Shown in pieces: positions 383 through 8,415 of a stretch of DNA of 11,226 bases. The DNA is from Calditrichia bacterium (GTDB lineage Bacteria > Calditrichota > Calditrichia > RBG-13-44-9 > J075). The position numbers and the translations under genes were made by a program. The notes under the pieces are model-generated. The model worked only from the letters and a program-made list of their open reading frames with translations, was not told where the DNA came from and made no database searches. Within the stretch, counting starts at the first letter, position 1. The number at the start of each line of letters is the position of its first letter. Where the stretch lies: assembly GCA_050633245.1 (NCBI GenBank), contig JBOEGD010000033.1, positions 350 through 11,575 of the forward strand, in the 5' to 3' direction.

Positions 383-3300
383 ATGTATTCACGTCTCATT
401 TTACTTCTATCCGTTTTAATGCTCGGCACGATGTTGCAGGGGCAAATTATTGAAAATGTTGACCCGACGGTCTCCCAGTTTGAAGTCGTAAGAGGTGCAG
501 GAGACCCACATTATAATGGTGATTTGAGTTTTAACATACCTTTAGTGACCGTTCCTGGCCGGAGCGGGTTAAACTTCGATATCTCGTTAGACTATGTGAG
601 TGGGAATGGCGTCTCAGCTAATGAGTCCGCTTCCTGGGTTGGCCTCGGTTGGAATCTGAATATGTATCAGATATCCTGTTCACCCAATAGTACGCCCGAT
701 GTAGCTGAAATCGGAGTAGATGCGCCTGATGTCTATTACCTCAGCTATCCTGGGGGCACAGTCCCTATTACAAAATTTGGGAATGAATGGAAACCAATTA
801 ATTGGACTGCTATAGAAATTGAAGCAGTCGAGGACAATATTACACTCAACGATACAAGTAACTTTGATGTTCATATTGGATATGAAAAGTTTATAATTAC
901 GGATATTGATGGCACAAAATATATTTATGACCACCGCGTTAAGTCTGTAAACTCCAGCCAAATGAGTAATTTATGTCATCCTGTTAATTTTGATGGAACT
1001 TGTTCACATACACAGAATTATCATAAATACTTTTATAGCTATAAACTGACTCAAATTCTTGCTGCGAATTATACAGATTCTAATTCAAATGGAACTCCCG
1101 ATAATGGTGACTTAGGGGGGTGGATACGACTGGACTATGGTATTTATGATGTGCTGGTCTTTGATGACCTTGAGGGGCTGCCCAGAGTTGAGGATGTAAG
1201 CTACTTAACGGAAATTAGTTCACCTTCTTATAAGGCCGTATTTGATCTTACGGCAGGGGATGACATACCGAATGACCCAATGGACCGTGCCTTTATCTAC
1301 ATGGGACACCAACCGGAACCGACAACTCTTCTTAGAAGCCTAAAGAACATTAAGTTACAAAAAGACGGCCAAACTATAAAACAGGTTGACTTTAATTCTA
1401 CAACTGCCAGCGGAGTGAATGGTGGATTTACCTGGGCAAGAAGAGAAACCGGCGCAGAATATTATTTTTTCGTTTCGACCCCAAATACTTCAAAAGAACA
1501 TCGATTACGCTTGCGGCTAAATAGCATTCAATTCAGTGATGGGGATGGCAACTATCAACCGTCTTATGAATTTGATTACTATTTAGAAGATGCTGCTGAT
1601 TTACCCGATAATCATCGGTGTTACCTGGACCCCTGGCAGATGATAATTGCCGAAACAGCGCCGCCACATAATCGGGTAAAGCAAGATACGCCAGATAACC
1701 TGAGAGACTATCTATGGATGTTAAAGAAGGTAACCTATCCGACTGGCGGCACTCTGGAATTTGAATATGAAACGGATCGCTATGAAGTGCACTACCCCGA
1801 GTTCAGTGACGCAGATCTAGCCTCTGAGCTGTTTCGGGCCAATTACATTGGCGGAGTTCGTCTTGCAAGCCAAACGATAACAGATCCGCAAGCTGGGCAA
1901 ATATCGGTTACCCAATACGATTATGGGTTACTTAATACTGAACTGGATGGTTTAGCAGGTGGAATTTATGAAGACGAGGGATTTGGATATTTGAGTGGCC
2001 GGCTGAAAAGCCCTGCAATTTACGTTGCAGGAAACGGCGTTGGTCTGAACTTTACAAATGATGTTCATTATCCAGATGTGCAAATTACACGTCCGGATGG
2101 TTCTGTAATTCGAAAATACTACACTAGTGCCTTTAGTGGAAACGGTAGGGGGGCAGCCGTTAATCTGATGTATGCCGAAAAGATCCATGCGCAAATTTTC
2201 CATGAAAATGATTTAACTATTCACAGTATTACCGATTGGGGGAACCTTGAAATCGATCATCCGGATATATTTGATGCATTCATTAAATTCACCGGAAGAA
2301 CTTCATACCCTCCACCAGTTGCCATTACAGATCATGATCGACATTATCTAAACTCGGCATCATACCCGACGCTGTATGATGGTTTAAATATGGACTATAG
2401 AGAAGTTATGCTAAACATTTTACGCACAGAGGCACGAGAATTTGATGATTTTACGCATAGTATGTATCAATCCTCGACAGTTTTTGGAGCTGGCAATAAT
2501 GATGCGTATGTACATCTTTTTAACAACCAATGGAAAAGAGGGTTGATTACTTGTACCGAGTGGTATTCTACTGACGGAACTACCCTTACTCTGATTAAGA
2601 AGCAGGATAACAGTTATACACTGAGTCCATTGTTCACAGAAAAATATACTTATGTAGAACAGAATGGCCCTAACTATGCGCCAACCCTCCATGCGAGCTT
2701 TGTAACCTCCGGATGGGCAAAACTCGATCAGGTAGTTACGGCAACATATATTGAGGGGATAGAACACCCATTGGTGGATATACAATTTCTCGAATATAAT
2801 TCTGTGAACGGCTTAGTCTCACTTAATACGTTGCAAGATGGTAGTGGTGGAAGCAATGTAAGAGAACTTACCAAAACGACGTATGCATTTGAGAAATATC
2901 CTGATATGGCGACTGCAAATATGCTGTCTCAAGTTGCCCAAACAACCTTATATGATATAGACAATATTCCAGGGAATGAACGAAAGTCAAATTTCTTAAC
3001 CTGGAAAAACTGGTTGGGCGCGGGTGGATGGGCACAGGAAGGCTCGTATGATTGGCTGGAAAGTTCAGCAACCGGGTACAGTTTACCGAACTTTGATATT
3101 AACAATCAGGAATGGATTCTGAGTAATACTGTCCTCGAGAGAGACGTCCATGGAAACATAATCGAGTTGCAAAATGCAAATGGAACAACAGTCGCGGGCT
3201 TATGGGGATACAATGGTTATCGACCCATGCTCGATGTGGTGAATGCAAGTTCTTCAGAGGTTGCGGTTGACGATTTTAACGATGGTAACTTTGATAATGA

Positions 3301-7383: not shown

Positions 7384-8415
7384 ATGTTGAATATCATCAA
7401 AAAGGTAAATCCTCTATGTCTCCTCGTTTGCTGGATAATGAGCTGTTCTCTGCTTATCGCCGCAGAATCGAATAAAAAGTATTACCTCAAAGATCACATT
7501 GGCTCTACCAGAGTTGTTGTTGACCAGGGTGGTGCTGTAACTGAAACCTACGACTATTACCCTTTTGGCTTGCAGATGCCTGAGCGCATTATGACGTCAG
7601 GTGCTTCAACCAAAAATTTATTTACCGGTAAAGAACATGATGATGAAACCGGTTGGGATTATTTCGGAGCGCGATATTACTCCGCTGCGCTCGGACGTTG
7701 GATGGTGGTCGACCCATTAGCTGAAGACTATGCCGGCATCTCTCCATATAGTTATGCACTAAATAACCCGCTTGTATTTACGGATCCAGACGGCGCCAGA
7801 ATAGAGTTTGCACCAGGTGTCTCCGATAAATTTAAGGCTGCATTTGCCGAAGCTGTTCAGCATTTAGATAAGCACGGAGCAGGTGGAATGATCGACGAGT
7901 TGCGCTCCAGAGAAGAGGTGGTCTTTGTTGATGAAATCAGAGGTGTTTCTTCATTTGATCCCAATGATAATACCATACGGTGGTCTCCTAACCAAGCCAT
8001 GCAAACTTTAGAAGGGCATACAATATCCGCAACAACATTGTTGAATCACGAGGTGGATCACGCGCTTCAGTTTCTTAAAAATCCAGAGCAACTGACTACT
8101 GATATTAATATTGACATTAAAGGGTATGATAATGCAGAAGAAAAACGAGTAATAACAGGTTCTGAGCAAACTACAGCGCTAAAACTTGATGAGATCAAGC
8201 AAGGGGAAGTTACGCGTAAAAACCACGTAGGAAAACTTGTTGATACGAGTGGGCCGACAAAGTCGGTAAGTATAAAAACAGAAAAAGCACTTGAGAGGGA
8301 ACGGAAGATACAGGAGAAGGAACGGAAGCTTCGGGAGTGGGAGAAAGAATTAGAGGAACTGGAGAGGAAAAGAAGAAAAGGAAATCGGAGCGGCAATGAA
8401 AGAAACAAAGATTAA
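7384..8415 (+). CDS. Signal peptide + RHS repeat-associated core + HExxH zinc metallopeptidase-like (M91/NleD-like) C-terminal domain, copy 2 (paralog)
   Basis: Start moved from 7360 to the ATG at 7384 because AAAGGA lies at 7371-7376; signal MLNIIKKVNPLCLLVCWIMSCSLLIAA; core nearly identical to copy 1; DPDG at 7783-7794; HEVDH at 8047-8061; EEKRVITGSEQ; charged coiled-coil tail. Confidence 0.92.
   Translation: MLNIIKKVNPLCLLVCWIMSCSLLIAAESNKKYYLKDHIGSTRVVVDQGGAVTETYDYYPFGLQMPERIMTSGASTKNLFTGKEHDDETGWDYFGARYYSAALGRWMVVDPLAEDYAGISPYSYALNNPLVFTDPDGARIEFAPGVSDKFKAAFAEAVQHLDKHGAGGMIDELRSREEVVFVDEIRGVSSFDPNDNTIRWSPNQAMQTLEGHTISATTLLNHEVDHALQFLKNPEQLTTDINIDIKGYDNAEEKRVITGSEQTTALKLDEIKQGEVTRKNHVGKLVDTSGPTKSVSIKTEKALERERKIQEKERKLREWEKELEELERKRRKGNRSGNERNKD

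Follow-up and report, generated by a model that had tools for sequence, protein, structure and literature searches.

A probable two-gene RHS cocoon in Calditrichia, with a coreless shell and separately encoded core and cargo modules

A stretch of 11,226 nucleotides from a Calditrichia bacterium (GenBank assembly GCA_050633245.1, contig JBOEGD010000033.1, positions 350 to 11,575; hereafter the window) carries an RHS locus that is divided over separate genes. Positions 383-8415 of the window are filled by three genes on one strand, as given by the open reading frame (ORF) listing. The first encodes a YD-repeat shell protein (P0001) that stops before the conserved RHS core, and the other two encode small proteins (P0002 and P0004) that begin with a signal-like peptide, continue directly with the core and end in a metallopeptidase domain. 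In the RHS, Tc and teneurin structures of the cited papers, the conserved C-terminal region lies in the same chain as the repeats that it seals. We consider it probable that the window encodes a split RHS cocoon, the parts of which would be exported separately and joined by strand complementation.

The shell protein has the YD/RHS-repeat region expected of a canonical one-chain RHS protein. It matches the profiles RHS_repeat (PF05593, E 1.8e-17), YD_repeat_2x (TIGR01643, E 6.3e-10) and DUF6443 (residues 1212-1320), together with a weak SpvB match and a 3keto-disac_hyd insert. It has no match to TIGR03696, and hence no RHS core contiguous with the shell in one polypeptide. The chain ends at ...VFWNMFGLDVIGRIDN and a stop codon, and the core is found beyond this stop, a 73-nt spacer (6101-6173), a change of frame and a signal-like peptide. 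The whole genome (6.35 Mb in 59 contigs) contains four TIGR03696 matches, namely the two small proteins of the window and two ordinary unsplit RHS proteins (frames of 2928 and 2105 codons). In comparisons with the sequences of the PDB, P0001 gave no matches at E 0.01, and the matches of a 12-row full-length shell profile were confined to the shell end and core region, which leaves the weak SpvB match as the sole assignment in the N-terminal half.

The two small proteins share the same layout. The second was listed as an ORF at 7360..8415 (P0003), the likely start of which is 7384, 238 nt beyond P0002; this gives the 343-residue P0004, the form present in the protein collection. P0002 and P0003 score 71.5 and 73.4 bits against TIGR03696 (cut-off 32.5), both matching positions about 1156-1260 of the 1261-position RHS_core model. 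The N-termini of P0002 and P0004 consist of two or three lysines, a hydrophobic run (best 10-residue Kyte-Doolittle mean 3.01 and 2.53, respectively) and AAE, followed directly by SNKKYY(F/L)KDH(R/I)GS. Signal peptides were called throughout by a heuristic based on charged residues and a hydrophobic run, hence the term signal-like. Shine-Dalgarno-like sites were identified by eye, AAGAAGG 10 nt before the ATG of P0002 and AAAGGA 7 nt before that of the second cargo gene. The earlier note on this DNA, made from the letters alone, had described a coreless 1905-residue shell followed by two genes with their own ribosome-binding sites, signal peptides and cores; both descriptions are borne out, the second by heuristic and by eye.

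Both cores also keep the conserved core residues. None of the 18 invariant columns in a 16-row core alignment is lost in either, and each closes with DPDG, the terminal DPxG of the putative autoprotease. The cargo after DPDG comprises about 186-206 residues, or about 21-24 kDa, which fits the range of 15-30 kDa quoted for RHS and Tc cargoes (PMC8765631). In both proteins it carries an HEVDH metallopeptidase domain that scores near the Peptidase_M91 threshold. The same domain is found at the C-terminus of unsplit RHS proteins (six matches, 38-49% identity), for example P0295, which combines DUF6443, RHS and M91.

The break lies at a defined structural position. Unsplit homologues read ...YRYNAAGQRIYKK...YWNI.ANGVVGR-(loop)-FYYLKDHLGS, and the break corresponds to the loop between their last shell strand and core strand, as in ...NGVVGRYEPGSGSKFYYLKDHLGS. 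P0001 ends three residues past GR, and mature P0002 would begin about five residues before YY. This loop is variable in unsplit proteins: a paralogue on contig C9 of the same genome has 16 extra residues at the break position, long inserts are found in genomes G015, G003 and G019, and the shell-core gap measures 18-136 residues in 11 of 60 fused cluster representatives. The break thus falls at a structurally permissive hairpin rather than at a random codon. In some unsplit relatives (L119, L117, L122, L018) the loop inserts are long and some look PKD/Ig-like by eye, and two split partners from Bacteroidota (L258, L264) have a PKD domain between signal peptide and core. There are hints here that insertion of a domain into the loop preceded the split.

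Codon comparison shows strong purifying selection on both cores of the window. Over core codons 25-137, P0002 and P0004 differ with pS 0.72, which is saturated, and pN 0.073, a ratio of about 0.03. Amino-acid identity is 90% in the cores, 54% in the toxin domains and 29% in the signal peptides, both of which are still hydrophobic; at the DNA level, 6244-6562 and 7455-7772 are 80.6% identical. Saturated synonymous sites together with conserved cores form a pattern unlike that of silent cassettes. The genomes of close relatives, 24 of 41 of which matched P0002, carry many short core-plus-toxin frames after full-length rhs genes, and these frames retain remnants of the last shell repeats upstream of the core. 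An orphan rhs-CT cassette has no start or trafficking signal of its own and is homologous upstream to the rhs 3' end, whereas homology in the window cassettes begins at AAESNKKYY, after a Shine-Dalgarno-like site, an ATG and a signal-like peptide, with no shell remnant. The loci fetched, from 34 of the 41 related genomes, contain 57 distinct core starts, three of which are immediately preceded by a start codon, Lys/Arg and a hydrophobic run: both window cores and P0005 from genome G007. A signal-like N-terminus directly before the core was thus confined, in this sample, to the two genomes with coreless shells.

The second of these genomes, G007, belongs to the same family and another genus. 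Its shell protein P0133 is a 1927-residue signal-bearing protein without a TIGR03696 match, which ends at ...IYWNIYGNDLIGRMTYSD and a stop codon in the same loop as P0001, with housekeeping genes behind it. In a tree of 20 shell C-terminal regions, P0001 has P0133 as its sister (Shimodaira-Hasegawa-like approximate likelihood-ratio support 99; 42% identity over 616 columns), and whole-protein BLASTP aligns them in two segments at 34% and 23% identity. P0001 and P0133 alone are coreless, at the loci examined, among the 13 long frames from 86 Calditrichota genomes that extend to the shell-profile end. P0005 is the sole signal-plus-core gene of G007, encodes a Scabin/enterotoxin-A-like ADP-ribosyltransferase as cargo, and is the best non-self match, out of 115, to residues 1-140 of P0002. 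Nine nt behind its stop (P0005 at L017:10141-11223) lies a 138-residue ORF without a Pfam match (11232-11648), which may encode an immunity protein.

Coreless shells also recur beyond Calditrichota. A shell profile (A2, 644 positions) searched against 1.84 billion cluster representatives gave 67,905 matches, the best 150 of which were classified with a shell-end hidden Markov model and a core search. Excluding P0001 and P0121 from the tally, there were 50 coreless, 64 fused, 5 other and 31 unclassifiable proteins (45/60/45 in a single-sequence pass). The 50 coreless representatives, of about 1,700-2,500 residues, stop between -1 and 18 residues from the shell end, most at 0-3, and typically end in ...YWNI.G..(I/V)G(R/K)xxP. 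Two proteins, P0138 and P0175, recur at identical or near-identical length across several assemblies, including on contigs of 3.4 Mb. Ends this precise are not explained by contig truncation. The coreless state is clustered on a FastTree phylogeny of 115 rows, where one clade (support 98) holds 38 coreless and 6 fused proteins; at least 8 to 13 state changes are needed, and none of 500 shuffles was as low. In addition, a word-based search with shell residues 1560-1905 gave 15 matches, one of which (P0121) is coreless.

Recurrent operons in Bacteroidota provide a parallel to the window. In an even sample of 401 Bacteroidota genomes, 33 matched at E<=1e-40, and 3' flanks were fetched for the 32 matches that reach the profile end, leaving out one short match in a 391-residue frame. 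Eight of these loci, in seven genomes, are coreless (L255, L256, L258, L260, L264, L266, L273, L277) and 24 are fused; an early-ending short fragment is additionally present in L276. About 6-66 nt behind each of the eight coreless shells comes a gene whose signal-bearing product has 464-583 residues, with Pfam matches of the TPR/YfiO type in the three tested (L258, L264, L266), one of which also has a CBM20 domain. The next gene in all eight, often with a 4-nt overlap, encodes a classic signal-like N-terminus, PKD/Ig-like domains, a core and a toxin. The core was found in seven of these eight partner genes, the eighth ORF running off its locus, and all five partners tested exceed the TIGR03696 cut-off. 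The partner in G143 has CBM4_9, fn3 and LamG-like domains ahead of the core, and small membrane-protein ORFs lie downstream of the Bacteroidota cargo genes. The TPR protein is a candidate periplasmic assembly factor.

Given these recurrent shell/TPR/cargo operons, the window arrangement can be seen as their minimal form. We propose a split class with two features: a shell that ends a few residues from ...WNI-x6-IG(R/K), and a separate gene for a signal peptide, optional PKD/Ig domains, a TIGR03696 core and a toxin. Both are found in the window, in G007 and at the eight Bacteroidota loci. Truncated core fragments with other toxins occur downstream of cargo or fused genes at some Bacteroidota loci (L266:3942-4261, L250, L276), so that classical orphan-like cassettes coexist with the split form.

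The two parts are also predicted to fit together. Complexes of shell residues 1212-1905 (15-row alignment) with P0002 residues 28-149 (16-row alignment) were modelled, giving interface scores (ipSAE) of 0.91, 0.90 and 0.91 against 0.00 for the best control. The predicted local distance difference test score of the partner did not fall below 86, and the runs had at least 90% of the 240-248 interface contacts in common. Shell residues 1898-1905 (residues 687-694 of chain 1) are in contact with residues 2-11 of the partner (error 0.5-0.7 A); in the model, this contact of the shell end with the core start is a strand continuation. The pass mark had been calibrated at 58 of 80 solved complexes against 2 of 110 mismatched pairs, a calibration that is rough here because own alignments were used. 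As solved RHS cocoons exist, the model shows compatibility rather than binding.

Taken together, the shell of G007 that ends in the same loop, the 50 coreless proteins among the best 150 representatives, the eight Bacteroidota loci, the purifying selection, the restriction of signal-like N-termini before the core to the two related genomes with coreless shells, and a complex model well above its controls support the view of the earlier note that the break is deliberate and not a product of decay. That note had further proposed to model the shell C-terminal half with each mature small protein and to search genomes for signal-plus-core genes beside coreless shells; for P0002 the modelled complex is the compatible one above, and at the Bacteroidota loci such genes are in place, with a TPR-type gene between them and the shell.

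The following mechanism would account for these observations. Gene 1 would encode a Sec-exported shell without a C-terminal core, and the products of genes 2 and 3, likewise exported by Sec, would each start in mature form with the core and continue into the metallopeptidase cargo. After both parts had crossed the inner membrane by Sec, the exported core would extend the terminal strand of the shell with its own first strand, thereby completing the spiral. The core would then plug the shell, and its aspartyl autoprotease would cut after DPDG. One shell could be used by either cargo module, and passage of the outer membrane would be a further step. It is conceivable, though we hold this wider proposal only tentatively, that the window represents a widespread class of RHS toxins in which cocoon and plug-plus-cargo are separate Sec-exported proteins, with encapsulation after translocation, the TPR protein of Bacteroidota as a possible assembly helper, and cargo that is interchangeable without DNA recombination.

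Several observations weigh against a split cocoon. One is a problem of topology, in that a cargo of 21-24 kDa must enter a separately exported shell. The hydrophobic core of the P0002 N-terminus spans about 16 residues and could instead form an uncleaved signal anchor. The contig is just 11,575 bp long with a run of N upstream of the locus, no plausible immunity ORF follows either cargo gene among the ORFs of the window, and the window has no adjacent TPR gene, unlike the Bacteroidota loci. In G007, P0005 is on a different contig from P0133 with no shell nearby, and their partnership is a matter of co-occurrence alone. The P0005 core is 61% identical to that of P0002, while the cores of fused relatives reach up to 64%; being no nearer, it gives no signal of co-divergence. 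The success of the complex model may also be explained by the likeness of the split halves to solved one-chain cocoons. Lastly, a scan of the genome collection with the shell C-terminus gave no further coreless shell among the matches listed (80 loci), where 26 rows at the shell end comprised 21 fused, three internal-repeat, one locus-end and the window itself. A metagenome scan likewise gave no true coreless shell among the matches listed (80 loci), with 16 fused rows, one false coreless call (an internal repeat in L199) and one other. Both scans cover the best-listed matches only and hence say little about frequency.

The alternative that survives best, which we regard as unlikely, is that the small proteins are free-standing Sec-secreted toxins with a core that is vestigial or a self-cleaving pro-domain, the shell having another role, for example as an empty teneurin-like adhesin. 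The separate contigs of the G007 shell and signal-plus-core gene would suit such independence, but at the loci examined these genes were seen only in the two genomes with coreless shells, and genes of this type come after all eight Bacteroidota coreless shells. Comparable proteins are found elsewhere: P0043, P0110 and P0114 have a signal-like or transmembrane-like N-terminus and half a core only, and core-plus-toxin proteins of 250-450 residues, mostly from Bacteroidota, form many ESM Atlas clusters with no fewer than 50 members apiece, which serve as leads only. The teneurin cocoon, moreover, is empty and its core uncleaved (PMC8765631). Yet the window cores are far more constrained than the toxins, as expected if both fit one partner, and the modelled interface is extensive. 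A core of about 110 residues, which is buried in every solved cocoon, would also be unlikely to be stable alone.

Decay of the locus would mean that core and toxin have dropped out of the main rhs gene and that the small ORFs are orphan core-CT cassettes, silent and maintained for use in recombination; this reading is already disfavoured and in our estimate very improbable. Rhs loci are known to contain orphan modules (PMC4436062), and relatives of the window do carry many short core-CT arrays downstream of full-length rhs genes. Those orphans, however, keep shell remnants and have no signal peptide, the reverse of the window cassettes, the cores of which are still 90% identical in amino acids with synonymous sites saturated. 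Intact coreless shells in G007 and among the best 150 representatives are likewise at odds with decay. A sequencing or assembly error, or recoding by frameshift or read-through, that hides one real chain is scarcely credible: the short contig with its N-run leaves some room for it, but the 73-nt spacer, the frame change and 27 non-homologous hydrophobic residues would have to be bridged, the sequence ahead of the second cassette differs from that ahead of the first, the G007 shell stops at the same place with no core downstream, and the same ends recur in independent assemblies.

The features of the locus are summarized in Table 1.

Table 1. Features of the putative split RHS locus, in window coordinates
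Feature	Position	Strand	Remarks
Coreless RHS/YD shell gene P0001, 1905 residues	383..6100	+	GGAGGG 6 nt before ATG; no TIGR03696 match
Signal-peptide-like N-terminus of shell, MYSRLILLLSVLMLGTMLQGQ	383..445	+	read by eye; cleavage site approximate
SpvB-like N-terminal stretch of shell, residues 45-99	515..679	+	25.7 bits vs cut-off 22
3-keto-disaccharide-hydrolase/LamG-like insert (3keto-disac_hyd), residues 965-1119 of shell	3275..3739	+	E 4.1e-12
DUF6443 and RHS-repeat shell proper, residues 1212-1905	4016..6097	+	part used in complex model
Last shell residues 1898-1905 (DVIGRIDN)	6074..6097	+	predicted pairing with start of mature core protein
Stable hairpin in spacer	6113..6144	+	-24.8 kcal/mol, z -3.72, 0/200 shuffles as stable
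Cargo gene 1, P0002, 323 residues: signal-like peptide, RHS core, M91-like metallopeptidase	6174..7145	+	
Signal-like peptide of P0002, residues 1-27, ...IISAA/ES boundary	6174..6254	+	
RHS core of P0002, residues 30-137, ends DPDG	6261..6584	+	
Peptidase_M91-like toxin domain of P0002, residues 148-255; HEVDH at 6837-6851	6615..6938	+	21.7 bits, below cut-off 25
Cargo gene 2, P0004, 343 residues: signal-like peptide, RHS core, M91-like metallopeptidase	7384..8415	+	ORF listed from 7360 as P0003
Signal-like peptide of cargo 2, residues 1-27, ...LLIAA/ES boundary	7384..7464	+	
TIGR03696 core of cargo 2	7555..7794	+	73.4 bits

The spacer between shell and first cargo gene contains a stable hairpin; further out, 6102-6110 and 6167-6175 form a helix that covers the ATG of P0002. 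No T-run follows the hairpin and no terminator was called there; as a speculation, it might tune the translation of P0002. In a terminator scan the intervals between the three genes were empty and counts were those of shuffled sequence, and the window is without Rfam matches. Upstream of the shell gene are three direct copies of 24-mers like TGCCGCAAGAAAACCTTGCAC (window 20-43, 144-167 and 225-248), surrounded by the short tandem runs GTCGCCCT, TCTCTCACTG and GCCCAACT; these copies could be operator sites or a repeat element beside the N-run of the contig. After the second cargo gene, 860 nt (8416-9275) contain no ORF of at least 60 residues, have a G+C content of 34% against 45% for the genome, and include a 22-nt direct repeat at 8674 and 8937; tblastn found no remnant of a further cassette in this stretch. 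Beyond it lie genes for a signal-bearing YHS-domain-like protein (9276-9752, minus strand; 28.4 bits, below the cut-off of 30.3) and for a Cupin_6 and AraC-type regulator (9955-10872, plus strand), which are probably unrelated to the toxin locus.

The split layout seems to be undescribed so far. No split, bipartite or two-gene RHS system was found in the literature searched, with subscription journals and supplements outside its coverage. A separately encoded core is not described in the available parts of PMC8765631, PMC4436062, PMC3482391, PMC13018210 and PMC8636562, and DUF6443 is named in no paper of the literature searched. How cargo enters the cocoon is still debated. If the proposed reading is true, the cocoon would be completed in trans, probably outside the cytoplasm, and the order of folding, plugging and cleavage could be tested directly with two purified parts. 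Small database entries named "RHS repeat-associated core domain-containing" and truncated-looking "DUF6443/YD repeat" entries may then be two halves of one machine. The layout also suggests a second route of toxin diversification, by swaps of small cargo genes, beside recombination with orphan cassettes.

Among known systems, the Tc BC cocoon (TcB/TcC, for example TcdB2-TccC3 and YenB-YenC2) is a close comparison. It is built from two separately translated proteins; the core closes one end and, by its aspartyl autoprotease activity, releases the variable toxin encapsulated within, and in the solved classes the conserved C-terminal region spirals inward to seal the cocoon (PMC8765631). As in the proposed system, the cocoon comprises two polypeptides with core and toxin on the second. 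P0002 residues 30-138 align to the TccC3 and YenC2 cores, and the window shell has a weak SpvB-like N-terminus. TcC retains a large part of the shell, whereas the second protein of the window consists of core and cargo only, and both window parts carry Sec-type signals, which are signal-like by sequence. No match to the TcA-binding domain (PF18276) was found in the window genome, and control genomes also gave none.

The single-chain Rhs effectors, such as P. protegens RhsA, P. laumondii Rhs1 and A. baumannii Tse15, share the shell, the core plug and the C-terminal toxin. Their pieces stay together non-covalently after autocleavage (PMC8765631, PMC8636562), whereas the break in the window is genetic and lies before the core. 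Each is the product of one gene, delivered by the type VI secretion system with PAAR/VgrG and without a signal peptide. Orphan rhs-CT cassettes resemble the window in having arrays of core fragments with alternative toxins downstream of an rhs gene, but they encode no trafficking module and act via recombination with the main gene (PMC4436062). The window modules have their own start, Shine-Dalgarno-like site and signal-like peptide, are under purifying selection, and follow a main gene that is itself coreless. Bacterial teneurin-like proteins (BiTLP) consist of a YD shell that carries a Sec signal and surrounds a toxic C-terminal domain (PMC13018210). They differ from the window proteins in being single polypeptides with FN-plug and NHL domains, and the available part of that paper mentions no separate gene for core and cargo.

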